Under the pieces are notes generated by a model. It was not told the origin of the DNA. It made no database searches and saw only the letters and a list, made by a program, of their open reading frames with translations. DNA of 56,844 bases, taken from Bacteroidales bacterium. GTDB taxonomy: Bacteria > Bacteroidota > Bacteroidia > Bacteroidales > M50B96. Location of the stretch: the NCBI GenBank assembly GCA_041584015.1, contig JBFHES010000002.1:1-56844 (forward strand). The letters are read 5' to 3'. The position numbers were made by a program, and so were the translations under genes. Positions 8,456 to 34,499 of this stretch are shown piece by piece. Each line of letters begins with the position of its first letter. Positions within the stretch are counted from its first letter, which is position 1.

Positions 8456-9550
8456 CTAAAATATCGAAGTACTAACCTGGAACAACGGCAGGTACATTGA
8501 TACCAGAATTACAGCGACAATAACCCCAACAAAGATGATTAGCACTGGCTCCATAAAACTACCGAGCATTGTTAATCGTTGACCAAGAAAGCTGGAATAT
8601 TGTTCTTTTAGTTTTGAAAAGGAATTATCCAGTTTATTTACTTCTTCACCCATTCGCACCAGTGAAAGAAAACGTTGGTCGAACAATTTCCATTCCTTCA
8701 TACTTGCATAAAGGGATTCTCCTTGTTCAACATTTGTTTTAATTTCTTCGATAATATGTTCCAGATAAGTAAAGTAAATCATTCGCTTAACCAGATCAAG
8801 GGCATTAATGATTGATACTTTTGACGAAATCAGCAACTCCATTGACATACAGAACCGTTCTAAATAAATCGCTTTTACAATTCCTCCCACAAAAGGGATG
8901 CGCAATAAAAACTTATTTAAGGCAATTCTAACTTTCTTACTTTTTCGTGCAAAATAAAACGAGAGATAAACAACAAACGGAATAAGAATAAAAAAAAGTG
9001 AGTTTCGAACCATGAACTCAGACATGTCAATTACAAATTGGGTAACACCTGGCAATTCACCATTGAACCTGGCAAAAACATCCTTAAACATCGGTACAAT
9101 TACATTCAACATAAAGACAACAACCACTATGGCAGTGATCATTATAAATATTGGATAAGAGAGCGATCCTAAGATTTGTTTGGTATGCTTTCTCTTATTT
9201 ATATAAAAGTTCGAGAGTTCTTGTAACACTCTGTATAAACTTCCTCCTTCTTCACCAATACGAATGCTATTGAACTCATAAGCAGTAAACATTCCTGTGT
9301 TTTCGAAGGCTTCAGAAAGCGTACTGCCGCTAATTACATTTTCTAAAATTTGCTCAAGTATTTCTTTATGCTTTCCTTTTTTTTGTTCATGAATAATTAT
9401 ATCCAGCGTGGTTTTAAGATCAATACCTGATGATAATAAGAGATGAAATTCAGAATACAAACTTTCTTTAAATTTATCAGATAACCTTTTTCGTGACCCC
9501 GTAAGATCATAATCAAGAATCTTGCTTAGTCTGTCTTTCTTATTCTTCAT
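8456..9550 (-). CDS. GspF/PilC-family inner-membrane platform protein
   Basis: 364 aa. It has the duplicated cytoplasmic-domain plus three-TM layout, with segments such as LSEAFENTGMFTAYEFNSIRIGEEGGSL and SLYASMKEWKLFDQRFLSLVRMGEEVNKL that are typical of T2SS F-family proteins. Confidence 0.8.
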   Translation of the reverse strand: MKNKKDRLSKILDYDLTGSRKRLSDKFKESLYSEFHLLLSSGIDLKTTLDIIIHEQKKGKHKEILEQILENVISGSTLSEAFENTGMFTAYEFNSIRIGEEGGSLYRVLQELSNFYINKRKHTKQILGSLSYPIFIMITAIVVVVFMLNVIVPMFKDVFARFNGELPGVTQFVIDMSEFMVRNSLFFILIPFVVYLSFYFARKSKKVRIALNKFLLRIPFVGGIVKAIYLERFCMSMELLISSKVSIINALDLVKRMIYFTYLEHIIEEIKTNVEQGESLYASMKEWKLFDQRFLSLVRMGEEVNKLDNSFSKLKEQYSSFLGQRLTMLGSFMEPVLIIFVGVIVAVILVSMYLPLFQVSTSIF

Positions 9551-10022
9551 TGTGAAAGTTCATTGAAGTATTCATTAAAAGGCTATTTGAATAATTTTTA
9601 TATAGAAATGTATTTAATTTTCTTTCATTATTAACAATTTCAAACTGCACTGATTCTACAATATCGGATTTTGATGACAAGCATTCAATGTCCAAGCCTT
9701 CAAAATGAAACTGAAGTGTGTCAATAAGCTCTTCATCTATCCTAATAAAATTTGAGGATTTTACTTCATATTGGATGGATGAATTATTATAGAAATCCAT
9801 TATTAAAAGATCATCGTCAAAGTATATTGTTGCTGCCTCATCAAAATCTTTTATAAACCTGTTATAATCCAAAAGCATAAATGTGTTGTTGCTAACTCTC
9901 TGCTGAATCCGCATTGACACCTTCTGAAAGTTAAGATAAATAACAATGATCAACAAGATAGCAATACCTCCAACGAACATGGCTACAAGCAATTCATATA
10001 TGGTAAAAGCTTTTACTTTCAT
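9540..10022 (-). CDS. Minor pseudopilin (prepilin-type N-terminal domain)
   Basis: 160 aa. The N-terminus MKVKA|FTIYELLVAMFVGGIAILL is a class III signal with Glu at +5. Its end overlaps the platform gene by 11 nt. Confidence 0.65.
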   Translation of the reverse strand: MKVKAFTIYELLVAMFVGGIAILLIIVIYLNFQKVSMRIQQRVSNNTFMLLDYNRFIKDFDEAATIYFDDDLLIMDFYNNSSIQYEVKSSNFIRIDEELIDTLQFHFEGLDIECLSSKSDIVESVQFEIVNNERKLNTFLYKNYSNSLLMNTSMNFHNEE

Positions 10023-10360
10023 CTCCTTGTAATTAATTCTCTGTAAAAAGCCTGTTTTCCAGAATTGTAATTTACGGTGATGTTGTATTTCTTTAGGTCA
10101 TTTCTAATAAACTGTTGATTTTCCTCAAGCTCAATCTGACAAATTGTAAAGTCAGTATGTATTGGTTGTTTATTAGCCTTTATTTGATTCATCGCATTGT
10201 TCATATAAACATACGATTCTACCTTAGCATCCAATTTATAAGAGTTTTGAATATTCAATATAATTACCGTTACCATTCCGGACAGTATCATAATAATGAT
10301 TAATGATACAATTACCTCAATTAAGGTAGATCCTTTTATTTTCCTTGTTATTGTATGCAT
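10019..10360 (-). CDS. Minor pseudopilin (GspI-sized, prepilin-type N-terminal domain)
   Basis: 113 aa. It has RKIKG|STLIEVIVSLIIIMIL with Glu at +5. There is a 4-nt overlap with the next gene. Confidence 0.65.
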   Translation of the reverse strand: MHTITRKIKGSTLIEVIVSLIIIMILSGMVTVIILNIQNSYKLDAKVESYVYMNNAMNQIKANKQPIHTDFTICQIELEENQQFIRNDLKKYNITVNYNSGKQAFYRELITRR

Positions 10361-11610
10361 TTTACTAATTCAATTTTCTTAACATCACCAAAAACATACG
10401 ATGATACATAGGTATTAGGCAACACTGTAGCGTCAATAACAGCATTGAGCAAATGATTTTCGTAACGTGAAGATGCTGAAATAAGTTCAAATTCATTGCA
10501 TTGCATGTACCCATAAACAATACCCGAATGAGAAACCTTTCCCTCACAATAAACAGATCCTGTGATTCTTGAATTTTTCTGGATACTCAATTTTACAGAT
10601 TTGTCCTTTACCCTTTTTTTCTGAAGAAGGATAATATCTCCCCGTACTTCAGAATCTTCTTTAAGAATCAAATTAGCATCAGGGATTTTATCTGTATATA
10701 AAGAAAGGATGCTTGGAAAAAGCAGCCTGGAATCAGCCCCAACCAATAGCCTTTCCGTTGCATACAGCTGACAACTTCCTTCGAAACCCTCTTCAACCTC
10801 TATAGTGGGTGCATAAATGATTATATCCTTTAATACAGCCGTTCTACTAATGCTTACTTTTTTACTTGAAACAATGACGATATTACCAATAAAGGTTGAA
10901 TTAACACTAATCTCCTTATCGTGTGAAAGGAATATTGTTTTGTCCTTAAATGAATTAAAGATTGAATCAGGTGAGTTATAAAACGACCAGCTATTGTTTC
11001 TGTCAATTTGTCGAAATTGAATATAAAGTGAACTTAATGTTTTTACGTTAATCTTAGGTAATTCCGATGTGCTTTTATGCTCATTACCGTTGATCAATTC
11101 AGTACCAACAAACGGTTGCCCCTCAATGCTACCTCTTCGTACACTCATACCAGGAAGATAACATTCCCCAGTTAATCTGGATTTCCCGCTAAGAGTGAGT
11201 CCTGTATTATTGTCGGCCAGATAAAGGGCCTTATTTGTGTTTTGGTTTTCCAGTCCTGTTAGTAATACTTTCTTCTTTCTAATTTCTTTAAAAGATGCCG
11301 TTACAATGACAATTTTATATAAGCCCCATTCCTTTTCCTTGAATGCGATGGAAATTCCATCCAGCGCCATGTGTTTGTTCAAATACTCATTTGTACATTT
11401 ATCAGGAGTCTCCATGTATAATTCAATAGAATTGTCAAGATAAGTTGAGATTTTGCTCTCTAATGCTGTTTTTTCAAAAATCTGATTGTTAAGAAAATAG
11501 TAGGTGATGAATAGCAAAAGAAGTACAAATACAACCAAAGCAATTGTAATGGTATATGCTAAGGTTCCCCCTCTAACCTTCAGGTTCGATAATTTCATCT
11601 TCTTTTTCAA
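10348..11610 (-). CDS. Large GspK-like minor pseudopilin with a predicted beta-helix-like C-terminal region
   Basis: 420 aa. The N-terminus KVRGG|TLAYTITIALVVFVLLL is prepilin-like but lacks Glu at +5, as in GspK. The C-terminal half has repetitive short beta-strand motifs. The true start may be an internal Met, because the ORF overlaps the upstream gene by 38 nt. Confidence 0.45.
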   Translation of the reverse strand: MKKKMKLSNLKVRGGTLAYTITIALVVFVLLLLFITYYFLNNQIFEKTALESKISTYLDNSIELYMETPDKCTNEYLNKHMALDGISIAFKEKEWGLYKIVIVTASFKEIRKKKVLLTGLENQNTNKALYLADNNTGLTLSGKSRLTGECYLPGMSVRRGSIEGQPFVGTELINGNEHKSTSELPKINVKTLSSLYIQFRQIDRNNSWSFYNSPDSIFNSFKDKTIFLSHDKEISVNSTFIGNIVIVSSKKVSISRTAVLKDIIIYAPTIEVEEGFEGSCQLYATERLLVGADSRLLFPSILSLYTDKIPDANLILKEDSEVRGDIILLQKKRVKDKSVKLSIQKNSRITGSVYCEGKVSHSGIVYGYMQCNEFELISASSRYENHLLNAVIDATVLPNTYVSSYVFGDVKKIELVKCIQ

Positions 11611-12106
11611 ATAATTCCCTGATTTTTTGCTTAAGCGCTCCTTTCTTCCTTTTGCGAACCTTCTTCACTTTAAGATTTTCATCCTCAACTTCCACTTCTT
11701 CTTCAATTTCCTCAACCAATAAAACTCCATCTTCCCAAAACTCCGAGTTAACTAAAACACCATTTTCGTCCCAGTAATTCCACTCCCCATTTTTAACGCC
11801 ATACTTAAACTGCCCTTTTTCAAGTAAGTTGTAGTTTGTATTAAATGATTCGTACAATCCATGTAACAGAAACCCAGAACTTCCACCTTGGTTGTTTTTT
11901 ATTTGCTTTTGGCTATACCAGTAATAGTCTTTTGATGAGCTATGATTGACTTTCTTGTTATGAACCAGGATGTTAAACTTAAACAAGTTATTGTCTTGAG
12001 TAATGGTCACTTCCCTTGTAGCACTGTTTTTTTGATTGAATTGCCCCAGGATCTCAAGAGGATTATTTAATTGGGCTATTACAAATATGAATATGAAATA
12101 TTTCAT
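11573..12106 (-). CDS. Secreted MORN-repeat / YwqK-like protein with a charged C-terminal tail
   Basis: 177 aa. It has a signal peptide, the segment GLYESFNTNYNLLEKGQFKYGVKNGEWNYWDENGVL (MORN-type repeats), and an E/K-rich tail. Confidence 0.5.
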   Translation of the reverse strand: MKYFIFIFVIAQLNNPLEILGQFNQKNSATREVTITQDNNLFKFNILVHNKKVNHSSSKDYYWYSQKQIKNNQGGSSGFLLHGLYESFNTNYNLLEKGQFKYGVKNGEWNYWDENGVLVNSEFWEDGVLLVEEIEEEVEVEDENLKVKKVRKRKKGALKQKIRELFEKEDEIIEPEG

Positions 12107-12203
12107 GTGTTTACAATTTACTTTTATAGGTCACATGTAACTCTCATGAGAAAATAATCATCCTCTAGTGTGGAATAAGTCTATTATCTTCTTCATGCTC
12201 GTT

Positions 12204-12713
12204 TCATCTTTTTAACTTCTTTATTATTCTGGGTTTATCTTCGCATACAATGGAAATGGAGTCATTCCATATCTGTAAAATTCTTATTTCAAATTTCTCC
12301 AGCTCCTTTTCAACAATGTATGTTTTATCCTCAACTTGTAGCAGTACTTTCTGAACGTCCTGAGTTTCACTGTAAACAAAACCTTTGTACTTAATACTTA
12401 ACTCCTTTTTCTCCGTAGTCTTTGTGCCTCTCCTTTTGTTAAATGTACTTTGCTTTATATTTTTTGTTTGATCAGATTTGTTATGTGATACATTTTTTAT
12501 CCGACGTGCTTTTTTAAGAAAAGGATCTGGATAACTTAAGCTCAACTGAAAAGTATCTTTTGTGCTTTGTTTGAACGAATTATTCATTCCTTTATAATTC
12601 GAGGCCTCAATGACTGGATCTGTATTAACAAACGAAAAGATCTTATAAAAGATCAATCCCCAGATTATTACAGCTGCGGGTACTAATACGTATAGAAGCT
12701 TCTTATTCTTCAT
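12204..12713 (-). CDS. Bitopic membrane protein with a GspC/PilP-like HR-type beta domain (tentative)
   Basis: 169 aa. It has an N-terminal TM, a basic linker, and the C-terminal segment KYKGFVYSETQDVQKVLLQVEDKTYIVEKELEKFEIRILQIWNDSISI, which resembles the secretin-interacting HR/PilP fold. Confidence 0.4.
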   Translation of the reverse strand: MKNKKLLYVLVPAAVIIWGLIFYKIFSFVNTDPVIEASNYKGMNNSFKQSTKDTFQLSLSYPDPFLKKARRIKNVSHNKSDQTKNIKQSTFNKRRGTKTTEKKELSIKYKGFVYSETQDVQKVLLQVEDKTYIVEKELEKFEIRILQIWNDSISIVCEDKPRIIKKLKR

Positions 12714-13666
12714 TGAATATTTACCGTAAATTTATAGACCTCTGTTTCTGATCCTATATTACCAGCAGCATCGAATGGTTTTAAATACCAATAATAATCT
12801 TCAGAGTCTAGCGGCGTAAAGTAATAACTTGCATTACTAACTTTTTCCTCAATAATGAATGTTGAAAATGCACTATCGTTTGAAAGGAACAAACTGTCAA
12901 ATAAAGGAGAACCATCATCTAATGAATGTTGCCAACCCATAGGTATGCTATTCCCTGTTGTATTGATAACAGCATTATTACCGGGATAACTAATGTTTGG
13001 TGTTACTGGTCTGGTTGTGTCAACCTCTAAAAACCGATGAGAAAATATTGTCGATGAACCTTCATTTTGACCTTGTACACCCCAGGCGTATATTCCTTCT
13101 TGTAGCCTTTCCTCAATTGTATCATTAAATAAGATTTGTGGATTTTTATATGCATCTCCTTCCCAACTATTAACCCTTATATCAAACCTGTAGTTATCAA
13201 CATTAGCCATATCTGTCCAGGTAAACAACACATCTCGTTGATTTGAATAAAACCATTCTGATGGAGTTAATAATTCCACCATTAGTCCTGTTAATGAGCT
13301 ATCAGAATTTATAGTTAAAACTCCCTCCGTATAATCAGTAGCGCTTGAGTAATTCAAGGCTCTAATTTGCCATTCAAATGTATCAGGGTACAAACTCAGG
13401 TCAACTGAATTTACAGATACCACTGTATCATATATGGTAAGAAAATAACCACCAGGCACTTCGGAAAACACTTGTACTTGATAATCTATAGCGCCATCGA
13501 CATAATCCCATGAAAACTCATGATTGAGTTCTGAAGTGTTGTATAGCGCTGGAGGATAAACGACATACACATTTTTGCTACTTATATCTTCTTCAAAAAT
13601 GTCGCCGCATGATTGAATTGAAAACATCGCAAATATTAGAATAGCTATGTTAAATCTCATTTTCAT
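12710..13666 (-). CDS. Lipoprotein with repeated Ig/Fn3-like beta-sandwich modules
   Basis: 318 aa. The lipobox is FSIQSC. The pattern FEWQIRALN / YAWGVQGQN / YYWYLKPFD recurs in about three modules. Confidence 0.5.
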   Translation of the reverse strand: MKMRFNIAILIFAMFSIQSCGDIFEEDISSKNVYVVYPPALYNTSELNHEFSWDYVDGAIDYQVQVFSEVPGGYFLTIYDTVVSVNSVDLSLYPDTFEWQIRALNYSSATDYTEGVLTINSDSSLTGLMVELLTPSEWFYSNQRDVLFTWTDMANVDNYRFDIRVNSWEGDAYKNPQILFNDTIEERLQEGIYAWGVQGQNEGSSTIFSHRFLEVDTTRPVTPNISYPGNNAVINTTGNSIPMGWQHSLDDGSPLFDSLFLSNDSAFSTFIIEEKVSNASYYFTPLDSEDYYWYLKPFDAAGNIGSETEVYKFTVNIQ

Positions 13667-14189
13667 CTTTTTTATAGGATTGTATCACCAATTTAACAAT
13701 CAATCTTTCTTTCTTATTTTCCCTGTCATCGAAGGTGTGAAAATCTGCAGAAATAATCTTCATTGATTTGATTTCAGATTCAAAAGCATTAATAGCTTTC
13801 AACAATTTATTGAAGGTACCTTCTAACTCAATAATCTGGTTCATTACCAGATAATCTCCTTGCTCAACTTGATGGAGGTCATGCAATTTAAAAATAGAAA
13901 GGTTCTTCTTATCAATGTTCGAGAAATAGTCAATAATTAGTGATTGGAAAGCCTTCTCATCAAAGCTCCTTCCAATTAATGAATCTAAAATAAGAACGTC
14001 ATGTTGAATTTTTAGGATTCTGTTGGGGGCATTTTCCACCTTTTCAAGATTAGACTCAAGAACTTTCTTTTGATTCTTTAGTCCAATCGTTGGTTTTATT
14101 GATACCGAATAAGCGATAAGAGAAACTACAATCACTCCAATTATTGTTAGGTAAAACCGTTGTTGATATGTTAGTTTTATTTCTTTCAT
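13650..14189 (-). CDS. GspM/PilO-like bitopic assembly protein (tentative)
   Basis: 179 aa with a single N-terminal TM followed by coiled-coil and ferredoxin-like-sized periplasmic parts. The call rests on its position between the GspL-like gene and the lipoprotein gene. Confidence 0.4.
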   Translation of the reverse strand: MKEIKLTYQQRFYLTIIGVIVVSLIAYSVSIKPTIGLKNQKKVLESNLEKVENAPNRILKIQHDVLILDSLIGRSFDEKAFQSLIIDYFSNIDKKNLSIFKLHDLHQVEQGDYLVMNQIIELEGTFNKLLKAINAFESEIKSMKIISADFHTFDDRENKKERLIVKLVIQSYKKDENEI

Positions 14190-15391: not shown

Positions 15392-15404
15392 CCTAACTGA
15401 CTGC

Positions 15405-17342
15405 TTAATTTATGATTGTAGGTTTTATGAATATATTCAGTTTATTCGATGCTTTTGATTTGCTTCTGCTGCTAAATATCCATTTAATAACAGGAACTCT
15501 TGATAAAAACGGAATGCCTGTTCCCGTATTACTTGATGATTTTTCTTCCAATCCGCCCAAGAGTACCATTTCCTGATTCTTCACTCGAATGTAAGATTTA
15601 AAATCTCTTGAAACTGCACCAGGAGGTGCATCAGGAGATATTCTGCTTGTAAAGTCTGATTGTTTGATTTCAATCTCAAGCGTAATATGTTCATCGCCTG
15701 CAACAAATGGTTTTATGGTTAGCGACATGTCTGCATTAATGGGCTTGTAAGTTCTGGTAGTTACATTCTGTGGATTTTCATTACCTATTACATCATGTCG
15801 CTCCTCAAGGTAGTATTCGGTATTTCCAATATTAATGGATGCCTCATGACCGTTTAAGGTGGAAAGCATCGGTGTAGATCGGAGCTTAACCACACCCTGA
15901 TCTTCCAGTGCTTTTAAGCTAAGGTAAAATCCAGGATTCACTTTTCCAATCTTAAACCATCCAAAGCCATTAAAACTGTTTATTAATTTATTGACCGATT
16001 CTGTATTTAACTGAAAATCTACTCCGGGTGATATAACTCCACCAGATTCCAACCCTTCATAAGCACTTCCTATACCCGCACTTATACCTGTTGAAATTGC
16101 ATGGTTGCTATTGTTATCAATTATAATTACTTCAATCAAAATCACTGGCACCAGCTTGTCTATCTCCTTGATGAATGACTCAAAATGATCAATTTGTTTC
16201 TTGTTACCGGAAACAACCAAAGCGTTCAGTTCTATAAACTCAACCACAGTTATACCATCGGTAATATCCTCAGGTATTACTTCCAAAAGTTTCTCAACCG
16301 TTCTAAAATTTAAATAAATCAACCTGTTTTCAATGAATTCGGTAATGGTTTTATCGCCAATTAGATGAATATTGCTTGGCTTTTGGTGAATAAGATCTGT
16401 CCCATTTAGCAAGTTATCCATAAATTCCTCAAACGTAACATTAACAAGATTCATTGAAACAGTCTGGGTCGCTTCTGATAATAACATGTAGTTATCACCT
16501 GTCATTGAAGCTACTTCCGACAGAATTTCATTGATGGAGGAATTAACTGATACAATATCAATATACCCCGTTCTCGGAATATTAATAGTTAGGACTGATT
16601 GTTCTTCTTTGTTGTTTTTATTGTTTCCCCTATTACCCGAATTTCTGTTATTTGATTTGTTGTTAGTAGAAACGGTGGTCTTAGGTTTAGTTTGAGACAA
16701 TCTATAAGAATTATCCTGAAGTCGTTTTAGTTCAAGTTCATTCGAGAAAGCTAAATGATCCAGTGCCTTATCCATTGGCAGACCTTTTACAAAGGAACTA
16801 ACCAATAACGAATTTAGTCCCGGTGCAATTGATACATTCGAACCACTTTTAATGGTTATAGCTTTTGTAACCTCATATAAATTGTCATTCGATAAATCGA
16901 AACTCAATAATTCGTTTTGCTTATCATAAACAATTACGGGGAGTTTTATTGGAGTTTCTTTGGAAACAATAACCTCCGGTGCTTTCTTTAGATGAATAAT
17001 GCTTCCGGTAATTATTAGTTCCAGATCAAAATTCTTACAGAGGTACAGAATCACATCGTAAACCGGAACTTCAGTAAATGTATAAGATACAATTTGGTGT
17101 ATTCCCGGGTCAACTGATAAATTTATTTTGCTGGTTGATGCAAGGGCATTGACAAATTCCTGAATTGAAACATCAAAAACGGTTAAGTCAACTGTAGTGT
17201 GAATAATGCTATCTGTTTGTGCATACCTGTCAAGCTGATTTTGAATGGTATCCATATTTATTTGACCATTCAAGTTCAAACATAGACCTGAAAGAAGTAT
17301 TATTGAAAAGATATATCGAATCATGTTAATTGGTCGGTTCAT
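15405..17342 (-). CDS. Secretin (GspD/PilQ family)
   Basis: 645 aa. It has a signal peptide, three repeated N-terminal small domains, and an Asn-rich linker. The C-terminal secretin domain ends in GIPFLSRVPVIKWIFSSRSKSK...LNIFIKPTII. Confidence 0.85.
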   Translation of the reverse strand: MNRPINMIRYIFSIILLSGLCLNLNGQINMDTIQNQLDRYAQTDSIIHTTVDLTVFDVSIQEFVNALASTSKINLSVDPGIHQIVSYTFTEVPVYDVILYLCKNFDLELIITGSIIHLKKAPEVIVSKETPIKLPVIVYDKQNELLSFDLSNDNLYEVTKAITIKSGSNVSIAPGLNSLLVSSFVKGLPMDKALDHLAFSNELELKRLQDNSYRLSQTKPKTTVSTNNKSNNRNSGNRGNNKNNKEEQSVLTINIPRTGYIDIVSVNSSINEILSEVASMTGDNYMLLSEATQTVSMNLVNVTFEEFMDNLLNGTDLIHQKPSNIHLIGDKTITEFIENRLIYLNFRTVEKLLEVIPEDITDGITVVEFIELNALVVSGNKKQIDHFESFIKEIDKLVPVILIEVIIIDNNSNHAISTGISAGIGSAYEGLESGGVISPGVDFQLNTESVNKLINSFNGFGWFKIGKVNPGFYLSLKALEDQGVVKLRSTPMLSTLNGHEASINIGNTEYYLEERHDVIGNENPQNVTTRTYKPINADMSLTIKPFVAGDEHITLEIEIKQSDFTSRISPDAPPGAVSRDFKSYIRVKNQEMVLLGGLEEKSSSNTGTGIPFLSRVPVIKWIFSSRSKSKASNKLNIFIKPTIIN

Positions 17343-17352
17343 GTTAATTGAC

Positions 17353-18753
17353 TTAAAAATATAAATATTTCAGCACCTCTTCTAAACTTGTTTTACCACT
17401 GTTAAATAAATCAATGGACGAATGAGCAAGACTATTGGTAAGATCTTCCCTGTTTTCACTCAATCGCTCATTAATAATATCCGACTTCAGCTTGTTATCA
17501 ATTGGGATTACTTCAAAAATACCAATCCGACCCGAATATCCAGTGAAGTGACATTTTTCGCACCCAACAGCAAGGTATTGAACTTTTGTATTGAAATAAT
17601 TCTTGAGTGATTCAGGCAATAGCTTTACATCCAATACTTCTTCTTTTTTACATTCAGGGCAAAGTAATCGAACCAATCGTTGAGCAATTGATAATTCCAG
17701 TGTATTTGCTATTAAAAATGGAGGAACTCCCATGTCCGTTAACCTGGAGATTGCTCCTATGGCTGAGTTTGTATGAATGGTTGACAATACCAAGTGTCCG
17801 GTTAATGCTGCACGGATTGCCATTTGTGCTGTTTCACTATCCCTGATCTCTCCCAGCATTATTATATCCGGATCCTGACGCAAAAAAGAACGAATGGCAT
17901 GTGGAAAACTTAATCCGATATCTTCTTTAAGCTGTACTTGGTTAATACCTTCCAATGTATATTCAACCGGGTCTTCAATGGTAACAATATTTGTGTCATC
18001 GTTATTGAGAATTTTTAAGGTGGCATAAAGAGTAGTCGTTTTCCCCGATCCCGTAGGTCCGCTTATCAAAACAATACCATGTGGTTTTTTTACCGTAGAA
18101 AGGTAAACATCAAGTTGGTTTTTGTTAAAACCAATTATAGCAATATCTATACTGCTGGCATCCTTACTCAATAATCTTAATACGGCCTTTTCACCAAAGA
18201 GGGTAGGGATAACAGATACCCTGATGTCAAACCGACTCTCATCTTGTTTGAAAAGTATTCGGCCATCTTGTGGTAGGCGTTTTTCAGCAATATCAATGTT
18301 GGCCAGAATTTTTATCTGGTTGATGACATATTTGTATTCGCTTTTCTTTAGTACATATCGTTCAATTAGTTTTCCATCAATACGGAACCTCACCCTGCAC
18401 TTATTATCAAATGATTCAAAGTGAATATCGCTGCAATCAGTTTGCTGTGCCTCGCTAACCATATTATGTAAAAAACGGTTCGATTTAAAATCAACTTTAG
18501 AGCCAGATCTGGATAAACTGTTTTTTCGGTAGTACCTCGAAAGCTTTTCTTTAAATAAGGATTCTTCTATAATCTCAAAAATTATTTCTTTGGAAAAAAG
18601 CAGCTCCAACTGTTCCTTATTGTTATCAACATTATTGCTAGCTATTGAATAAAAATGAATCGTCCCTCCTTCTTCAAGCTTTGGTATTATCATGTAATGC
18701 CAGGCTTGTTCAGCGCTAATTATTTGTAATAATTCTGTTGAAACTTCAATCAT
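17353..18753 (-). CDS. GspE/PilB-family secretion ATPase
   Basis: 466 aa. It has a GSPII_E N-terminal-type domain, Walker A GPTGSGKTTT, Walker B IIMLGEIRD, His box GHLVLSTIHTN, and a tetracysteine motif CPECKK...CEKCHFTGYSGRIGIFEV. Confidence 0.9.
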   Translation of the reverse strand: MIEVSTELLQIISAEQAWHYMIIPKLEEGGTIHFYSIASNNVDNNKEQLELLFSKEIIFEIIEESLFKEKLSRYYRKNSLSRSGSKVDFKSNRFLHNMVSEAQQTDCSDIHFESFDNKCRVRFRIDGKLIERYVLKKSEYKYVINQIKILANIDIAEKRLPQDGRILFKQDESRFDIRVSVIPTLFGEKAVLRLLSKDASSIDIAIIGFNKNQLDVYLSTVKKPHGIVLISGPTGSGKTTTLYATLKILNNDDTNIVTIEDPVEYTLEGINQVQLKEDIGLSFPHAIRSFLRQDPDIIMLGEIRDSETAQMAIRAALTGHLVLSTIHTNSAIGAISRLTDMGVPPFLIANTLELSIAQRLVRLLCPECKKEEVLDVKLLPESLKNYFNTKVQYLAVGCEKCHFTGYSGRIGIFEVIPIDNKLKSDIINERLSENREDLTNSLAHSSIDLFNSGKTSLEEVLKYLYF

Positions 18754-18756
18754 TGA

Positions 18757-19281
18757 TTACAGCCAAATGAGTTGGGAATAAAGATAGTTATTAATAAACA
18801 AATTGCTTTCAACAAAGTAGTTTAATAAGTGCAAAATGGCTAATAAAATGGCCATGATTCCTGCAAGAGGAATGAGCTGGTTTTTCGATTTTGAAAGTAG
18901 TCGGTTTAGAGCATAATAAATTAGTCCTGCAATAAACCCAAGCACATTGAAAACAATAAAATAAATAGGTGAGAATAATAAAGAGATGCAAAATATAAAT
19001 AACAAATCTCCCAGACCGAATGATTCTTTTAACTCAACTAAACTCGATCTCTTTATGAATTTGAAATAACTTAGTAGAACAAATGAAACAAAACCAATGA
19101 TTGCAAAATTTAATAGTGTATTTTCCAAGAACAATTCTATTTCAACGTTCATGATTGAATATATAGAAGAAAGTAAACCTAACCCAATCACTAAAACTAA
19201 AGAAATCAACTTCTCTTTGAAATCCTGATAAGCGATGATTAAAAGCACCAATATTATTAATCCGGCTATTAGTTCAGGCAT
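18757..19281 (-). CDS. Short (TadV/CpaA-sized) A24-family prepilin peptidase
   Basis: 174 aa and polytopic. The two candidate catalytic Asp contexts are IIAYQDFKEKLI and FGLGDLLF. There is no N-terminal methyltransferase region. Confidence 0.55.
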   Translation of the reverse strand: MPELIAGLIILVLLIIAYQDFKEKLISLVLVIGLGLLSSIYSIMNVEIELFLENTLLNFAIIGFVSFVLLSYFKFIKRSSLVELKESFGLGDLLFIFCISLLFSPIYFIVFNVLGFIAGLIYYALNRLLSKSKNQLIPLAGIMAILLAILHLLNYFVESNLFINNYLYSQLIWL

Positions 19282-19284
19282 GGT

Positions 19285-19692: not shown

Positions 19693-19715
19693 TAATGTTT
19701 AGTTAGAGTTTAGTG

Positions 19716-19723
19716 CAAATATA
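19716..19723 (-). promoter_or_regulatory. Bacteroidota-type -7 promoter motif TAnnTTTG (TATATTTG on the minus strand)
   Basis: The motif lies about 24 nt upstream of the pilin ATG. This suggests the secretion cluster has its own promoter. Confidence 0.3.
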
Positions 19724-19781
19724 AAGAATACTTACAAAAGTATATCTGCCGCATAGCATTATCAGTAAAATACAATTCATA

Positions 19782-20348
19782 CTACAAACTATTGTAAGTT
19801 TCAATTATTGATCTCAGATCCACATATCTAATTTTATCTACATTAAAGTGATTAAACACCTCTGGTTTGTCAGATAAAAATAGTTTCATCTGTTCTCTAA
19901 ATTTCCTTTTTCCATGTTGTGCCTGAATTATATGCCCCTTATCCCCTTTCTGCAAAAAGAAGTATTCACGCTTTTCGTAAATTTGGCCATTGTTCGTGGT
20001 AATGGTGTATCCCAGCAAATTAATATCGCCAGTTACAATCTCCCTTGCAAAACCATCATCATAGTTGGTGGATAGCAAAGAATTCACACTTTTTGCTTCA
20101 AAGTTTCTAATTACTTTATAATTATCACCGTTAACACTAAAACCTTTAATCATATTAGGTTTTAACTTTATTCTCTTACTCTCTTTTTCTAGTTTAAACT
20201 TAATTTTTGATCCACTAACAATTTTAATATAGCCTTTAACTGTATCATTGCTTAATTCAATATAATATCCTTCTTGATAAAAACTTTGACTAAAAGCAAG
20301 ATTACAGCTAAGAACAAGTAACACCAGCATTAAACTCTTTATTTTCAT
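19782..20348 (-). CDS. Secreted protein of unknown function
   Basis: 188-aa ORF with an N-terminal signal peptide (LLVLSCNLAFSQ). No motif was recognised. Confidence 0.45.
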   Translation of the reverse strand: MKIKSLMLVLLVLSCNLAFSQSFYQEGYYIELSNDTVKGYIKIVSGSKIKFKLEKESKRIKLKPNMIKGFSVNGDNYKVIRNFEAKSVNSLLSTNYDDGFAREIVTGDINLLGYTITTNNGQIYEKREYFFLQKGDKGHIIQAQHGKRKFREQMKLFLSDKPEVFNHFNVDKIRYVDLRSIIETYNSL

Positions 20349-20456: not shown

Positions 20457-20489
20457 CAGCTGGCACGGATTACAAATCCGTACCAGCTG
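20457..20489. terminator. Strong hairpin (15-bp stem with one mismatch, 3-nt loop); possible operon boundary or REP-like element
   Basis: CAGCTGGCACGGATT-ACA-AATCCGTACCAGCTG lies between the immunity-like gene and the 188-aa gene. No clear U-tract follows on either strand. Confidence 0.35.
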
Positions 20490-20546: not shown

Positions 20547-20984
20547 TCACTTCGTCAAAATTTTCACAACGGTTTTATTAAATATCTTTTGAGACCAAAG
20601 CTCTAAAGATTTATCTGAATGATTTCCACATGAATAGATTTTAATCTTATTCTCAGAATAACTTAAGTGATCATTTACAGAATGAAGATGTGGTTCGTAG
20701 ATTGCTATTGCGTGTGTTTCATCTAATACAGGGATACTAAATAATAATTCTCCATTAATTAGAAGATCAAATTCTCCTTCAGAAAGTTTAAATCTGGATA
20801 TTTTCTTCATAACAACCTCTTCAAACTCAAAAGACAATTCATTTGGACTAAATTCAATTAGATAATCTTTTGATAAGATCAGCTTCTCCTTATTATTTTT
20901 TAATATAAATGAAACATCATCAGAAACACATGACGTCAATGAAAATAAATAAATTACAATTATTAAACTAATTAATCTTTTCAT
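20547..20984 (-). CDS. Lipoprotein, candidate cognate immunity protein of the Rhs C-terminal toxin
   Basis: 145 aa with lipobox LTSC. Its start lies 1 nt after the Rhs stop codon, which is the typical toxin-immunity coupling. Confidence 0.5.
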   Translation of the reverse strand: MKRLISLIIVIYLFSLTSCVSDDVSFILKNNKEKLILSKDYLIEFSPNELSFEFEEVVMKKISRFKLSEGEFDLLINGELLFSIPVLDETHAIAIYEPHLHSVNDHLSYSENKIKIYSCGNHSDKSLELWSQKIFNKTVVKILTK

Positions 20985-20985
20985 G

Positions 20986-26838: not shown

Positions 26839-26855
26839 AATTACAAAGTTTAATG

Positions 26856-27308
26856 TTAATTAGTTTGATAGAAGGATGTCACTGAATTAGTACCTTGAGA
26901 ATCCTCAAAGTACACCTCCAAATAGAAATCCTGCTTTGGATATATCCCTACCAAAACCTTAAGAAAATTACCGCTCTGAACGTAGGTAGATTGCGAAGGT
27001 AGATTCGTTCCATCAATCAGGAACGAAAGTGATAAGAGGTCTGAACTTCCCAATGTGGTTCCCAATTTCAAATGCACAGTTTCAACATTGGATGAATTGG
27101 GTATACTCATGGAAGCACTTAGTTTCAAACTATCTGCTGAAGTAAGCATGTCTAATGGGTTTACGATGCTATCCAGAGTGCTTTCTGTAATAGAAATCGG
27201 AGTGATTAACTCTTGTGTCAATTGTAAATTAGTTGGCCCTGAAACCTGACTATTAACACTAAAAGATACAACTATAAGACTTAATAAGATTATTACACTT
27301 TTTTTCAT
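26856..27308 (-). CDS. Small secreted protein between the two giant genes
   Basis: 150 aa with a signal peptide. The intergenic gaps are 17-18 nt on both sides, which suggests co-transcription. Confidence 0.45.
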   Translation of the reverse strand: MKKSVIILLSLIVVSFSVNSQVSGPTNLQLTQELITPISITESTLDSIVNPLDMLTSADSLKLSASMSIPNSSNVETVHLKLGTTLGSSDLLSLSFLIDGTNLPSQSTYVQSGNFLKVLVGIYPKQDFYLEVYFEDSQGTNSVTSFYQTN

Positions 27309-27326
27309 AATACAATATTTATTTAA

Positions 27327-30300: not shown

Positions 30301-33242
30301 CCCACGAAACTGAGCCCATTTTGATTATAATTCTCATAGACCATATTAAAGTATAAGTCTACGCCAAAATCTTCGAAGCCCTTAATTGGTTCAACATCGT
30401 CATGGGCGCCAAACCCTTCGAGATGACCATCATATACAGCTTCTTTGTTGTACACGTCCGACTCATACCCAATGCTAATTTCGGTGCCTACAGGAGTTAA
30501 AATGGATTTAAGGGAAAATGTTTCCGGGTTATCCCTATCGTATCCCCAGGCATCAAAATCATAATCGCTATTAAAAACGCCTGAATGATAAGCAAAATCA
30601 TAACCAGGCATAAACTCTGAACCTCCTTTCCCCAGAAGGTCCACTCCATGCAATGTCAACTTACCATTCACATTTGAGTTCTCAATATCCTGACCTGCAT
30701 ACAATGTGTAATCATCGGTACCATCATCATTATTATCATAATTAAATTCTATGACTTTTATGGCACTCGACTCTAATTGTGCAAGGTTATCCCCATCATC
30801 ATACACATTTCCAAAATAATGACCTGATCTTTCTAATAATACATCCTGACCAAAGTTCCAATTAGAACAATAAGGCCAAGGATTCGGCCAAAGAGTATTA
30901 ACAGGGGCTCCCTGTAGATCGTATGGATCAAACTCAAATCGATTATGGAACGAACTTAAAATGTCTCCAGCCCCAGTCCCGATTGAAGCATAATTGTCAA
31001 AATCATCATTTTTTACCAATAATATTTTGTCAAGCTTCATGACCTGTGCTTGATTCGGCGTTGTCCAATTATGATAATAATAAGGTTTGTAATAGCCAGT
31101 AGCGTACTCTGAATTATTCCACGCTACACTTGAGTTGGTCATACATGTTATTGGATATCGTTCTCTACTATAAGGTGAAATAATATTACCCCAATTAGCA
31201 TCAATCATCTTACGATAAAAAGGATCATGAGCTAGTTCCTTGCCCAAACCATCTTCACGAACACTTTTAACAAAAACAGCAGTATGTGTGCGTGTCTGGA
31301 TTGTATTGAGATAATATATTTGCTTTGTCCCTCTTTGAACATTCACTTCAAAATCATCGTCCATATCTGGATTGTACGGTATCTGCCAAACATATCCATC
31401 ACTCCATTTACCATAATCGAACTGTACCCAGTAGCCATAATCTTTTTCATCAAACCCGTCATCTCCACGTTCTACATAATCGGGTCCGGTTATGGCTGTT
31501 AATAACCAAGTATATGCATACTTACCATATTTAATATTATTAAAGTAATCATCCTGGTCATTATCCTTTTTGAATGTCCCTTCCTCAAATTGGTATACCG
31601 GTAAAGAATAATGATACCTTTTACCGTCTTCAACTGTTATCGTAAAAGCACCAATGCCATCTTCATCGAAATACATCCAATTTAACCTTGGCTCATCACC
31701 GCCTGCTGGAGGTAGACTGGTGATACTGCTGGTCTCAATAAAACCTCTCTCAGCAAGATTAGATGTAGCTATCTCCTTGTTTGTAAAGTATTCAACATGG
31801 CGACTCTGTCCACGCCGCTCATTTTGTGTATCATAATAGTTCGAAGTAACTGCGGTTACATCGGTACTAAAATCATAGCTATCTAACGGATATCCGTTAG
31901 CCAATGGATCTCCAATAAAATCACCATCGTCTATTCGTAGAAAAGATGAAGGTGCCAGGTCAAAATCAAAATAAATTTCATGTTGCTCTTTATCTACGGA
32001 ATTACCTATGTTATCATCATAAAAATAGGTCATATCGCTATTTAGATCCGTGTTATAATTGTCTGTTTCTATAGGAAAACCATTTCCTGTGATCAAATAA
32101 TTTTGATAAAGTTTAGGACTTATTGCACCTGTAATCCCCTGACCACTTACCGAGTATGCATCATATCCTGGCAATAAAATACTATTTAAAACCTCAAATC
32201 TATCTAAATCGGAATCATTTGTTCCAACATATTCACCACCTGAAGCCTGATCGGTATAATACCAAAAATCTTTATCATAGTCTATTGAATAGCTATCCAC
32301 CTTACAACGCGGATGGGCGGCAGATGTTTCTTCCACCCAGTTTTCTGAATAAGTATTTGCGTTTTTTGAATATAGTAATCCATAGTTGACATGGTTTTCC
32401 AAATGGTATGCCCAATAGTTTGCTCTGTTATGTTGAAAACTAATATAAAATAATTTGAAAGGAAGAGTAAAACCTCTGCTAAGGGTATATCCTGAAACGT
32501 TTGATGTTCCACCTGATCCTTGAATAGAACCACTAATAGATGGTAAACCACTGTAACTAAGGCCTCCATTAGTAGAAAATGAAATGCCGATTGATTTATC
32601 GTTATAAGGAACCTTAAAATCAGAATTTAACGATGCTCCAAGACCTATTCCTCCTGCCGAGCTATACGAAATTGATGCTCCTCCATATTTTAATGTACCT
32701 CGTAAACCGGAAGCAGGGTGGTAACCTATACTTGCACCAAAAGGAGTATCCGTGATTCCAACACCTACACTCCCACCGAATCCCTGGACGTCACCCCACG
32801 TATAGGTCACACCAAGATTTAAAACATCATTAATTCCCACCCCGGCACCAACTGTATAAAACTCCTTGTCTATCAGTTCGTTATATGCAATACATAATGA
32901 TGTGGATTCATTCCAGTCATCCGCAACTCCTGAAATAGTTCGGTTTAAAGCCCCAGGGTTAAGGTTCCAACCAAGTCCGACCCATGATGCCTCAGCACCA
33001 TTGGCAACCCCTGCGTGATAGGACAATGCTATTGGATACCCACCCCCATTTGAAGGTACTTCAAGTATGGGTAGAACATAAGTGAAATTACCTGTGAGGT
33101 TATTCACCATATCCGTTGCATCAACCGGCTCAAAGCTCATGGCTTCAGGCGCAATGGGCCCTGTGTTCTGTCCATCTACTTGTATGACAATTGCAACAAG
33201 TAAAGCGATTAAGGTAAACCTTTTCTTTATTCTTTGAATCAT
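27327..33242 (-). CDS. Giant secreted SpvB/TcB-N-like protein with C-terminal YD repeats
   Basis: 1971 aa with a signal peptide. The segment FTYVLPILEVPSNGGGYPIALSYHAGVANGAEASWVGLGWNLNPGALNRTISG matches the SpvB/TcdB N-terminal signature (LP...G.GY.P.l.L.Y.sG..N...GLGW.l....I.R). YD repeats lie near the C-terminus (YVYDDETGFLTYILDNDNLYTQYEYDYGGRL). Confidence 0.65.
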   Translation of the reverse strand: MIQRIKKRFTLIALLVAIVIQVDGQNTGPIAPEAMSFEPVDATDMVNNLTGNFTYVLPILEVPSNGGGYPIALSYHAGVANGAEASWVGLGWNLNPGALNRTISGVADDWNESTSLCIAYNELIDKEFYTVGAGVGINDVLNLGVTYTWGDVQGFGGSVGVGITDTPFGASIGYHPASGLRGTLKYGGASISYSSAGGIGLGASLNSDFKVPYNDKSIGISFSTNGGLSYSGLPSISGSIQGSGGTSNVSGYTLSRGFTLPFKLFYISFQHNRANYWAYHLENHVNYGLLYSKNANTYSENWVEETSAAHPRCKVDSYSIDYDKDFWYYTDQASGGEYVGTNDSDLDRFEVLNSILLPGYDAYSVSGQGITGAISPKLYQNYLITGNGFPIETDNYNTDLNSDMTYFYDDNIGNSVDKEQHEIYFDFDLAPSSFLRIDDGDFIGDPLANGYPLDSYDFSTDVTAVTSNYYDTQNERRGQSRHVEYFTNKEIATSNLAERGFIETSSITSLPPAGGDEPRLNWMYFDEDGIGAFTITVEDGKRYHYSLPVYQFEEGTFKKDNDQDDYFNNIKYGKYAYTWLLTAITGPDYVERGDDGFDEKDYGYWVQFDYGKWSDGYVWQIPYNPDMDDDFEVNVQRGTKQIYYLNTIQTRTHTAVFVKSVREDGLGKELAHDPFYRKMIDANWGNIISPYSRERYPITCMTNSSVAWNNSEYATGYYKPYYYHNWTTPNQAQVMKLDKILLVKNDDFDNYASIGTGAGDILSSFHNRFEFDPYDLQGAPVNTLWPNPWPYCSNWNFGQDVLLERSGHYFGNVYDDGDNLAQLESSAIKVIEFNYDNNDDGTDDYTLYAGQDIENSNVNGKLTLHGVDLLGKGGSEFMPGYDFAYHSGVFNSDYDFDAWGYDRDNPETFSLKSILTPVGTEISIGYESDVYNKEAVYDGHLEGFGAHDDVEPIKGFEDFGVDLYFNMVYENYNQNGLSFVGTDPNFLLEFAGWPGDNIFTERVPLTTVFTPTSIGYRVGQIVDMELEWKTNSGLNKDIEHENANWTYNAYGQFEVFYTGPMPILCGTTNINDYEMTLTGQIKCPDVEEWKWFKYVFEGTWDNNLQKAYCNDVDELKKIFPIKNFSVSALKPSGPKQGGGLRVNNIELTAGTDSYRTEYTYDGGIVSYAPTTYSRFVPYINEISAPLVVYNNVSIEEFDREGTSKGLVTNYEFEVFESFIPSTDPDASPRDFNLGSHFTVTNDEIDSDDPDDPGDVGSSSNPYFNSTTQTHHHAYFRKANIENKLSEIGRVNSVTTEDDYGRVVSRTDYTYMNLEVTPSTTDQGIVKETFRSTKRFNPVNLPGPLFDRITWYLNSTSNIKYPNILLSTSSVDNMGNKSETLIETLDPFTGIPVETININPDGSQIKTCILSAKDVGVYQGYDDAGTFIPGMNSKFENVLNKNMLSQKAAQISYRSNDDGSTWKPIGVNVQTWNDSWIYRNWDSGNSQYIDETEDGVWRKHENFIWGDAKTNGVLEGFTYGNGYDLEANWSSIISGSNDSWQKTSEVNRYDHYSNMLEVADIYNNVVAVTRYNEKDGATLLTASNATYDEVTHSGAEYLPQTGFCEGEVELENGAARINEIAITNLDAHTGSYVFQLQPGENIAYKAEIGNEFKIGQHYRASVWQFIDKNDDLNSEDCELWAQFLPGTSSDHKVIVSCANSTLSCGQLWKLITLEFQIPDLTGIDNIVISVMNETSTETHEFDDFRVQPVHSSVTSYVYDDETGFLTYILDNDNLYTQYEYDYGGRLMHSYKETKYGKTQLTKNVYNYAYDAFHLGECDADVAAGHTMLTEIIYTNHAATQVIQLEYFLDGTSVAAESENIPSGSTYTFVVPITIPDDLEQGNWHINIEGDWNGTIPVHVCNPLVPPLATAAVCDHAGYELPGTYLPSMDIYVNAGAGYTIGDTFVLLGTCRVFKLESFTGPGAINDYWEEIN

Positions 33243-33260
33243 AGCTAGTAACTCTTTATG

Positions 33261-33875
33261 TTAATTATTTAGTTTATTAAAATCTATGTTGGGCGTGTTG
33301 ATAATATCGTTGGTCTCAAAACGGAAAATAATTCTTCCGGTTCTTAATCCAAAGTCTTCTATTGTAAATTTCAATTGGTCATTTTTATGAAATAAGCCTT
33401 TATCAAATACCAATAGCACATCGGAACTTCGTGCAGCTCCGTAGGTTCTTGCAAAATGTGCGTCCATCATTTGGAGTGTGTCGGCAGCAGAATTGGTAAG
33501 GGTTACAAGATCCTGCATTCCAAATGCAAGCTGGTCAACTAGTTGTCCGAATTTTTGTTTGTCGCCGCCAAACGCATTTAACACTTCTTTACCGCCAGCG
33601 GAAACAGATAGAGTGAAATAAAGATGGTCAAAATTGGTTCTTTGTTGTTGCAATTCCTGCTCTTCAATTTTTTCTTTTTGTCTGACAGTTTGCCATACAA
33701 GCAGATCTGATGGTTTATAGGTTAGCTTGTAAGTGATACCATTCAATAGCTTTTCCTGGATGAGACCGTTATCCGTATCAGCAACATAACCTAGCAGCTC
33801 CTCACGATTAACTTCTCCGGTACAAGAAATAAACAATACTACTATTGTCAGATAGTAAATTAGCTGTTTTTGCAT
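33261..33875 (-). CDS. Lipoprotein of unknown function
   Basis: 204 aa with lipobox LFISC. It ends 18 nt upstream of the giant gene. Confidence 0.45.
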   Translation of the reverse strand: MQKQLIYYLTIVVLFISCTGEVNREELLGYVADTDNGLIQEKLLNGITYKLTYKPSDLLVWQTVRQKEKIEEQELQQQRTNFDHLYFTLSVSAGGKEVLNAFGGDKQKFGQLVDQLAFGMQDLVTLTNSAADTLQMMDAHFARTYGAARSSDVLLVFDKGLFHKNDQLKFTIEDFGLRTGRIIFRFETNDIINTPNIDFNKLNN

Positions 33876-33935
33876 GTTTAAAAAAAATAATAGAACGATT
33901 GTTTCTTAGTTACAATCGTCCTTTAATAGTTATTC

Positions 33936-34499
33936 TTAATCTGTTTCAACCTTAATTCCTTTACCGCGGTTGTATTCTTTGTTCAATCCCTCTAGTATTG
34001 CATCAGTCAGGTTGTAGTCTTCATTGGCATAAAGCAGATTACCAGTACCATTAGCTCCAATTACAAATCCATAGCCAGACTTCTTGCCAAAATCCATTAC
34101 AAACTCGTTTATTTCGTTGAGTACATTCTGAGACGAAAGTTGCTCTTCTTCTTGAATCTTTTTCTCTGTTGCTTCGCTATAACCGTTAATTTGCTGTTGC
34201 TTGTTACGGAGTAACTCCTGCTTAAGTTCAATCTCCTTTTTACTCATCGATTTCCTTTCTTTTTCATAAGCCTTCAGTTCAGCTTCCCATTCTGCTACCA
34301 ATGTGTCAACATTGGCTCTCATTGTTTTTGATTTTGCTTCGAATTCAGATCGGGCATCAATCATCCCTTGATATTTTTCTATTACAGTATTTAATTCAAT
34401 GTAGGCTATTTCGTCCTTTGCATTTGTCTTGTCGTACCAAAAATAAATTACACTAACGGTTAAAAGAACTGCCAATACTGTTAGAAAAGTCTGTTTCAT
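33936..34499 (-). CDS. OmpH/Skp-family periplasmic chaperone
   Basis: 187 aa. It has a signal/anchor followed by a long coiled-coil. The segments NTVIEKYQGMIDARSEFEAK and GYGFVIGANGTGNLLYANEDYNLTDAILEGLNKEY are typical of OmpH-like proteins. Confidence 0.65.
   Translation of the reverse strand: MKQTFLTVLAVLLTVSVIYFWYDKTNAKDEIAYIELNTVIEKYQGMIDARSEFEAKSKTMRANVDTLVAEWEAELKAYEKERKSMSKKEIELKQELLRNKQQQINGYSEATEKKIQEEEQLSSQNVLNEINEFVMDFGKKSGYGFVIGANGTGNLLYANEDYNLTDAILEGLNKEYNRGKGIKVETD

Follow-up and report, generated by a model that had tools for sequence, protein, structure and literature searches.

We analyzed a 56,844-nucleotide stretch of DNA from a Bacteroidales bacterium (contig JBFHES010000002.1 of assembly GCA_041584015.1; the whole stretch is called the window here), in which an earlier note had described genes for two giant, Rhs-related proteins lying directly upstream of a secretion machine and had proposed that the machine is a dedicated export route for them. 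The listing of open reading frames (ORFs) and Pfam searches bore out this layout, as all genes from 34499 down to 8456 are on the minus strand, with interruptions only by short nested plus-strand ORFs, and this run is made up of two blocks, a six-gene toxin block upstream and a 13-gene secretin/ATPase/platform/pseudopilin cluster downstream (Table 1). We take the window to hold one example of a two-part system that is conserved in Bacteroidota, in which a toxin module is joined to a machine that resembles a type II secretion system (T2SS) and is derived from type IVa pili (T4aP).

A toxin block and a secretion cluster on one strand

The first of the two large proteins, which we call giant 1, and the Rhs toxin both begin with signal peptides, as had been claimed and as could be seen in their translations. 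The earlier note had also set the two giants against the gene at 34824..35894 with respect to the sorting domain of the type IX secretion system (T9SS), and the window scans agreed with it, since Por_Secre_tail was found only in the latter gene (E 9e-11). The protein encoded by this gene, which is divergent from the OmpH gene of the toxin block, has 356 aa and carries a C-terminal sorting domain for T9SS, and the organism therefore uses T9SS for other cargo. No T9SS C-terminal domain was found in the window's two giants, nor in the precomputed Pfam lists of 120 listed giant 1 homologues. Equally in keeping with the note, no PAAR, VgrG or other type VI secretion system (T6SS) family was present among the approximately 47 window ORFs scanned.

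Two non-coding features that the note had placed between the blocks, a hairpin and a -7 promoter motif upstream of the secretion cluster, could both be read in the sequence. The promoter motif, TATATTTG at 19723-19716, fits TAnnTTTG, which we take to be the Bacteroidetes -7 consensus. The hairpin was not called by a terminator scan because it has no T-run.

Table 1. Genes and sequence features from the toxin block through the secretion cluster, in order along the minus strand
Feature	Position	Strand	Evidence
OmpH/Skp-like periplasmic chaperone, first gene of the conserved four-gene module	33936..34499	-	Pfam OmpH, E 1e-22
204-aa lipoprotein, second module gene	33261..33875	-	lipobox FISC in translation; Pfam search without match
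Giant 1, 1971 aa	27327..33242	-	signal peptide MIQRIKKRFTLIALLVAIVIQVDG
150-aa secreted protein	26856..27308	-	signal peptide in translation; Pfam search without match
Rhs polymorphic toxin, 1950 aa	20986..26838	-	signal peptide; Rhs-associated core TIGR03696
145-aa lipoprotein, candidate immunity protein	20547..20984	-	lipobox LTSC; start overlaps Rhs stop; no family matched, permissive thresholds included
Hairpin between toxin and secretion blocks	20457..20489	-	stem of ~14 bp, sequence reading
188-aa secreted protein between blocks	19782..20348	-	signal peptide in translation; Pfam and NCBIfam without match
Bacteroidetes-type -7 promoter motif TATATTTG	19716..19723	-	sequence reading; 24 nt upstream of pilin ATG
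Major pseudopilin, 135 aa	19285..19692	-	N_methyl, E 1e-7
Prepilin peptidase, A24 domain only	18757..19281	-	Peptidase_A24, E 6.5e-7
Assembly ATPase (GspE/PilB class)	17353..18753	-	T2SSE, E 2e-127
Secretin, 645 aa, STN/N0-type N-terminal domains	15405..17342	-	Secretin, E 1e-35; Secretin_N; STN; no AMIN domain by Pfam
GspL-like protein, 401 aa	14186..15391	-	weak PilN match, E 0.002, residues 342-396
GspM/PilO-like bitopic protein	13650..14189	-	position and N-terminal transmembrane segment; order conserved; Pfam without match
318-aa Ig/FN3-like lipoprotein	12710..13666	-	weak Ig_J match; in nearly all 80 secretin loci
169-aa bitopic protein, candidate GspC/PilP analogue (putative role)	12204..12713	-	conserved position; no family match
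177-aa MORN-repeat secreted protein, conserved component	11573..12106	-	weak MORN_2 match; conserved position
420-aa large minor pilin-like protein, putatively GspK-like by size and position	10348..11610	-	conserved across loci
Minor pseudopilin, 113 aa	10019..10360	-	N_methyl, E 6e-6
Minor pseudopilin-like protein, 160 aa	9540..10022	-	prepilin-type N-terminus KAF/TIYELLV; Pfam without match
Inner-membrane platform GspF/PilC	8456..9550	-	T2SSF, E 1e-44, two domains

Linkage of module and machine across Bacteroidota

The earlier note had suggested examining co-occurrence and synteny across Bacteroidota, and this comparison was strongly positive in both directions. For the secretin side, we used a secretin alignment to scan GTDB species, each represented by a single genome; this gave 429 relatives, and 80 loci were kept. 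For the toxin side, metagenomes were scanned with an alignment of the giant 1 family, which provided 80 loci. Neighbourhoods were defined by 10-kb flanks, and many of the toxin-side contigs were truncated. Module-type genes around the secretins were detected by profile and iterative searches, with Pfam applied to selected giants, and a giant, an Rhs protein, or a module OmpH or lipoprotein was counted.

The order of the 13-gene cluster was conserved almost everywhere among the 80 secretin loci. Module-type genes lay within the flanks in 26/80 of these loci, and in 22/37 (59%) of the loci of at least 20 kb. Conversely, the secretion cluster was found within 10 kb of the giant in 22/44 (50%) of the toxin loci that had at least 2 kb of upstream flank. 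With the loci treated as independent, the binomial P was <1e-14 even when five module copies per genome were assumed. An unsupervised clustering of the ORFs around the giants pointed the same way, in that pilin, A24 peptidase, ATPase and secretin recurred most after the four module families. These four families form a conserved module of OmpH, lipoprotein, giant and Rhs: of the 80 module loci, 61 had OmpH upstream of the giant, 67 had the lipoprotein, and 58 had an Rhs hit on the same strand as the giant. The 150-aa secreted protein that separates giant 1 from the Rhs toxin was essentially specific to the window, with a single weak tblastn match among the other module loci.

The linkage spans the Flavobacteriales, Bacteroidales and Marinilabiliales, across which the giants are only 27-36% identical, and linked loci were found in cultured Kordia, Sediminicola and Carboxylicivirga as well as in five Flavobacterium genomes. 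By a simple heuristic, signal-peptide-like N-termini were present in 73/76 giants, 57/58 Rhs proteins, 62/64 OmpH proteins and 63/73 lipoproteins, and a lipobox-like cysteine occurred in 52/73 homologues of the 204-aa module lipoprotein. The physical link seen in the window is therefore no accident but an example of a conserved neighbourhood.

Module and machine were joined in four arrangements. They are co-directional in the window, in Kordia sp. SMS9 (L002), and in L108, L139 and L170, the last of which is the window's closest relative, a Bacteroidales metagenome-assembled genome with a secretin 61% identical to that of the window. They are divergent, with the pilin gene back-to-back with OmpH, in F. 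hydatis (L164), L089 and many other loci. The module directly follows GspF in L119 and L123, and the giant itself comes directly after the minor pilins and GspF in L015, L019, L030, L058 and L119. Finally, the module sits inside the cluster and parts it into two halves in L140, L147 and L130, where PilO, PilMN, secretin, ATPase, A24 peptidase and pilin genes are followed by OmpH, lipoprotein, giant and Rhs genes and, after further genes, by those for the Ig lipoprotein and the homologues of the 169-aa and 420-aa proteins; in Sediminicola sp. YIK13 (L165), the embedded module is followed by the minor pilins and T2SSF.

A YD/Rhs pair stood beside the pilin gene in 5/5 Flavobacterium genomes examined. 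In four Flavobacterium loci (L166:524-7489, L167:365-7453, L168:579-7427 and L169:199-7114), the pilin gene is divergent from a short YD pair that lacks OmpH. The first gene of such a pair encodes a partner of ~970-1160 aa that has only its first ~100 residues in common with giant 1, and the second encodes a DUF6443-RHS toxin of ~1200 aa, the toxin ends of which differ (Phospholipase-like, Tox-MPTase2). Flavobacterium sp. N1736 has an unlinked long module, yet carries the machine with an adjoining short YD pair on the same chromosome.

Other features recurred around the module. In many loci, such as L106:553-8747, L146:83-8571, L154, L156, L165:2-8168 and L094:1473-8503, up to nine paralogous genes for secreted proteins of ~250-800 aa stand in tandem directly upstream of the module OmpH gene; the window has none. 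The paralogues share the N-terminal motif NTFPxxGNVGIGTTxP, a motif of tail-fibre-like proteins, and they could be exchangeable receptor-binding partners. In Polaribacter porphyrae (L001:21406-25047), a stretch in which both strands have open ORFs of ~1040 aa comes after the module; next is a pilin-like gene in the opposite orientation, and neither an ATPase nor a secretin gene lies within 10 kb.

Composition of the machine and of the giant proteins

Secretin, GspE-type ATPase, GspF platform and prepilin peptidase were all identified in one locus (Pfam Secretin, T2SSE, T2SSF and Peptidase_A24), and the earlier note had assigned the machine to the T2SS class; this assignment holds for its architecture but, by published trees, not for its phylogeny. 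The DFDGDG motif of the major pilin was present in 89/89 homologues, of which 78/89 were cysteine-free, and a cysteine-free pseudopilin with a calcium-binding loop of the DFDGDG type is a hallmark of GspG. We assigned a calcium-type pseudopilus from this motif, and calcium binding is predicted. The 401-aa GspL-like protein, conserved in position across loci, reads in translation as a cytoplasmic domain, a transmembrane segment and a PilN-like periplasmic domain, while the 420-aa protein has an N-terminus that is prepilin-like but lacks Glu5. With its cysteine-free pseudopilin, its apparent fusion of PilM- and PilN-like parts as in GspL, its putative GspK-like minor pilin and its one ATPase, the machine appears T2SS-like in architecture, as judged from the translated genes. 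Several traits of T4aP are missing from it, namely separate PilM and PilN, a PilQ with AMIN domains, and a C-terminal disulfide in the pilin (that of the window has no cysteine). Furthermore, no PilT or other retraction ATPase was found in the window, which has a single ATPase, or in any cluster locus inspected. No GspC-type HR or PDZ domain was detected. The 318-aa Ig/FN3-like lipoprotein is a conserved component specific to this type of cluster.

Single components were compared with PDB sequences, and the results fit the T4aP origin published for the system. The score of the ATPase was nearly the same with PilB (354 bits) as with GspE (349 bits), the pilin was nearest to true type IV pilins in its N-terminal helix, and the nearest relatives of the secretin were pIV, PulD and PilQ; the secretin family of the window also includes Flavobacterium proteins annotated as GspD. 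Denise et al. showed that the Bacteroidetes "T2SS" branches with T4aP, apart from T2SS, in all marker trees, and proposed that it is a secretion system possibly derived from T4aP independently of T2SS (PMC6668835). In Cytophaga hutchinsonii, the cluster CHU_3191-3201 was described as a putative T2SS, and its mutants had secretion-related phenotypes, with cellulose use affected (PMC5553014). By component set, the window cluster appears to match this "so-called T2SS of Bacteroidetes". It shares with the published clusters (CHU_3191-3201; Fjoh_0614-0622; PMC5553014, PMC6668835) the secretin, ATPase, platform, major pilin, A24 peptidase, PilM/N/O-like proteins and divergent minor pilins; however, those papers describe no cargo or neighbouring toxin module, whereas the window cluster is tied to the OmpH-lipoprotein-giant-Rhs module. 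A role as a competence pilus was also considered and set aside, as the Riemerella transformation papers say that those species lack pilus homologues (PMC8459023) and are uninformative on the cluster.

The window cluster resembles the canonical proteobacterial T2SS (Gsp/Pul/Eps) in its single ATPase, its cysteine-free pseudopilin of the DxDxDG type, its probable GspL-like fusion, its large and putatively GspK-like minor pilin and the two-step logic of Sec followed by secretin that we propose here. Unlike that system, it has no detected GspC HR or PDZ domain, contains the additional Ig-like lipoprotein and MORN protein, and follows a different gene order.

Among the giant proteins, the Rhs toxin was the more readily classified. 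It has N-terminal repeated domains, a weak DUF6443 match (E 1e-5, below the Pfam cut-off) and a YD shell, matches SGS1 among the PDB sequences, and contains an Rhs-associated core (TIGR03696, E 8e-11) at residues 1658-1734 that ends in ...NNPVNGIDPNG, so that both the YD shell and a core with the DPxG-motif end are present. The remaining tail of ~210 aa had no Pfam or PDB match, even at permissive thresholds. A papain/NlpC-like reading of an NCWG...H...D motif in this tail was made by eye only and was supported by no tool, and we did not retain it. The 145-aa lipoprotein downstream is an immunity candidate, and its lipoprotein nature suggests a periplasmic target for the toxin.

Giant 1 belongs to a family with >1000 homologues in Bacteroidota, the best of which is 35% identical, and it consists of a signal peptide, a conserved region of ~930 aa, a YD-repeat shell (~residues 1140-1800) with an insert resembling a carbohydrate-binding module (CBM), and a variable tail. 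Sequence searches of Pfam, NCBIfam and PDB were all without match for giant 1. We modeled it in two halves with AlphaFold2 (AF2), and residues 1001-1971 gave a mean confidence score (pLDDT) of 67 with a confident core. Foldseek matched this C-terminal half to Rhs effectors, TcdB2-TccC3, YenB, teneurins and SGS1 (E ~1e-8, probability up to 1.0), with probability 1.0 for 6sup, 6h6f, 6h6g and 4igl_A. A confident jelly-roll of the CBM16/22/61 type is inserted in the YD shell at residues ~1600-1760. Residues 1-1000 were modeled with a pLDDT of 63 and a predicted template modeling score (pTM) of 0.69, and this half had no significant Foldseek match; its top hits, all non-significant, were the outer membrane (OM) barrels Ail, LptD, FauA and Pla (best E 0.17, probability <=0.2). 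Residues ~110-290 are glycine-rich and form very long predicted beta-hairpins of low model confidence.

The earlier note had called giant 1 SpvB/TcB-like. The fold search sustained this description for the YD shell of the C-terminal half, but neither Pfam nor NCBIfam nor a family profile searched against PDB sequences revealed an SpvB domain, and we dropped the SpvB assignment since the profile gave only YD repeats and CBM. A short motif at the N-terminus does look like the beginning of SpvB. No beta-propeller fold was matched in either half. On the structural model, giant 1 appears to be a toxin-free YD-shell partner, and in that sense TcB-like, and its shell is predicted to pair with the adjacent TcC-like Rhs protein. 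As in the BC pairs of Tc toxins (TcdB2-TccC3, YenB-YenC2), two large YD proteins are adjacent, with the first toxin-free and the second carrying an Rhs core and a putative variable toxin. The window differs from these pairs in that giant 1 has no detected SpvB domain or propeller, no TcA-like gene is in the window, the Rhs protein is long enough to form a whole shell alone, and the proteins have Sec signal peptides and a Skp-like chaperone and lipoprotein of their own. The Rhs effectors associated with T6SS (7pq5, 7q97, Tse5) likewise have a YD shell and DPxG Rhs core, and the Rhs tail and lipoprotein gene of the window are candidate counterparts of their polymorphic C-terminal toxin and downstream immunity gene; however, they have a PAAR/VgrG-binding N-terminus where the window proteins have a signal peptide, and no T6SS genes were found in the window.

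Mobile-element and defence genes lie on either side of the two blocks. At 36152-54179, the window encodes an AAA protein, a 1215-aa SNF2-type helicase, RadC, an N6 DNA methylase fragment, an endolysin-like Amidase_2 protein and DUF6549, with a GC content of 0.40-0.42 against 0.31-0.38 elsewhere, and this region has the look of a mobile element, perhaps a prophage, that borders the locus. On the other side, at 1255-7585 and just beyond the end of GspF, a gene for a defence-like 1221-aa protein of the PIN-TPR-GreABC type is followed by HTH_17 excisionase-like and BT4734/VapE primase-helicase genes. A gene for a GPP34 (Golgi phosphoprotein 3-like) family protein lies at the contig edge (41-715).

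Proposed export through the machine and its alternatives

The conserved neighbourhood gives good support to a functional coupling between module and machine. This coupling is best explained by export of the giants through the machine when the neighbourhood, the signal peptides and the absence of other sorting signals are taken together, and we judge this explanation to have about an even chance of being correct. In its fuller form, which we propose more tentatively and as slightly less probable than not, the T4aP-derived machine of Bacteroidota would be the export route for signal-peptide Rhs toxins, with the Skp-like chaperone and the YD partner preparing a periplasmic cocoon toxin that the pseudopilus expels via the secretin. 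The module proteins would cross the inner membrane by Sec, consistent with their conserved signal-peptide-like N-termini, and once in the periplasm these proteins, which are very large and beta-rich, may be kept competent by the module's own Skp-like chaperone. The single ATPase, on a GspF/GspL/GspM-like platform, would then drive a short calcium-type pseudopilus that pushes the proteins out via the secretin, either onto the cell surface or into the medium, a step suggested by the conserved neighbourhood only. The C-terminal domain of the Rhs protein, carried inside the YD shell, would finally act on a competitor. A type IV filament machine co-opted for antagonism, as proposed here, is found in the Tad-like Kil system of Myxococcus xanthus, which kills prey in a contact-dependent manner; unlike the window machine, Kil belongs to the tight adherence (Tad) branch, and we know of no YD or Rhs module linked to it.

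Several observations weigh against this proposal. Folded YD cocoons are ~6-10 nm wide, and the lumen of the secretin may not pass them. Skp-type chaperones are classically tied to unfolded OM proteins, whereas T2SS cargo is folded. The weak, non-significant resemblance of the giant 1 N-terminal half to OM barrels could mean that it inserts itself by way of the beta-barrel assembly machinery (BAM). The loci counted are not phylogenetically independent samples, and the chance expectation of ~1-4% per locus came from a simple calculation rather than an empirical control. Moreover, ~40-50% of the clusters or modules with adequate flanks were non-adjacent, and therefore the machine probably has other cargo and modules can be unlinked. 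The effect of the homologous C. hutchinsonii cluster on cellulose use also indicates that the machine has other roles (PMC5553014), and together with the non-adjacent loci it makes the "dedicated" export route claimed by the earlier note doubtful.

It is possible that the module exports itself, with the Skp-like chaperone handing the N-terminal region of the giant to BAM for insertion into the OM and a type V-like display or translocation of the YD shell and the Rhs protein, and that adjacency to the machine reflects co-regulation of two functions that serve competition or the cell surface. The dedicated OmpH/Skp gene that heads the module in 61 of the 80 loci, the glycine-rich N-terminal half of the giant with its long predicted beta-hairpins and OM barrels as top hits, and the long module that stands alone in Flavobacterium sp. 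N1736 would all suit this explanation. However, the barrel matches were non-significant and fell in a model segment of low confidence, and co-regulation alone fails to explain either the embedding of a module between the halves of the cluster or the tie of the OmpH-less short YD pairs in Flavobacterium to a pilin gene; we consider self-export unlikely, though it is the most probable of the alternatives. Less likely still is that the machine builds a surface fibre, pilus or tip complex, for contact with the target or for display of the giant at the tip as with PilY1, and that the toxins leave the cell by another route and are delivered upon contact, with the machine functionally coupled to them but not their translocon. 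The grouping of the system with T4aP in published phylogenies (PMC6668835), the similarity of the pilin N-terminal helix to true type IV pilins, and the position of the giant directly after the minor pilins and GspF in five loci argue for such a structure, but a retraction ATPase is absent from the window and from every cluster locus inspected, the pilin lacks cysteine and bears a DxDxDG-type signature, as is typical of T2SS pseudopilins, PilM and PilN appear to be joined in one GspL-like protein, and the secretin has no AMIN domains.

Adjacency could also have no functional meaning, if recombination-prone Rhs islands settled beside the cluster ancestrally or if the cluster serves them as an integration hot spot. 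The mobility and variability of Rhs genes are notorious, mobile-element and defence genes flank the locus in the window, and the toxin tails vary between genomes (Phospholipase-like, Tox-MPTase2). We regard this explanation as highly improbable, however, as the linkage holds across three orders, with giants of such low identity and in four arrangements, was observed at 50-59% against the few percent calculated for chance, and is matched in conservation by the non-toxic module genes (OmpH, lipoprotein and giant).

Both parts of the system are of known kinds, and what appears to be new, judged by the literature searched, is their conserved coupling and the four-gene module. Full-text searches outside subscription-only journals found no literature linking the Bacteroidetes T2SS-like machine to Rhs proteins, and no description of the four-gene module of chaperone, lipoprotein, giant YD partner and Rhs was found in the searchable literature. 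Zhang et al. (2012; PMC3482391) do not mention secretin, OmpH or Skp, and a paper on bacterial teneurins (PMC13018210) does not mention Bacteroidota or T2SS.

This analysis defined a conserved four-gene module with >1000 members, and the proposed export would join two questions, namely what cargo the widespread "Bacteroidetes T2SS" carries and how the many Rhs/YD proteins of Bacteroidota that have Sec signals but neither T6SS nor T9SS markers get out of the cell. The hypothesis is directly testable, since the linkage was found in several cultured Flavobacterium species as well as in the cultured strains Kordia sp. SMS9, Sediminicola sp. YIK13 and Carboxylicivirga sediminis, and genetic tools exist for some Flavobacterium species. 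If true, export of the giants through the machine would give Rhs/YD toxins a new delivery pathway, distinct from T6SS, from Tc toxins and the type X secretion system (Tc/T10SS), and from the type VII secretion system (T7SS), and the giants would be the first cargo class identified for the Bacteroidetes machine.

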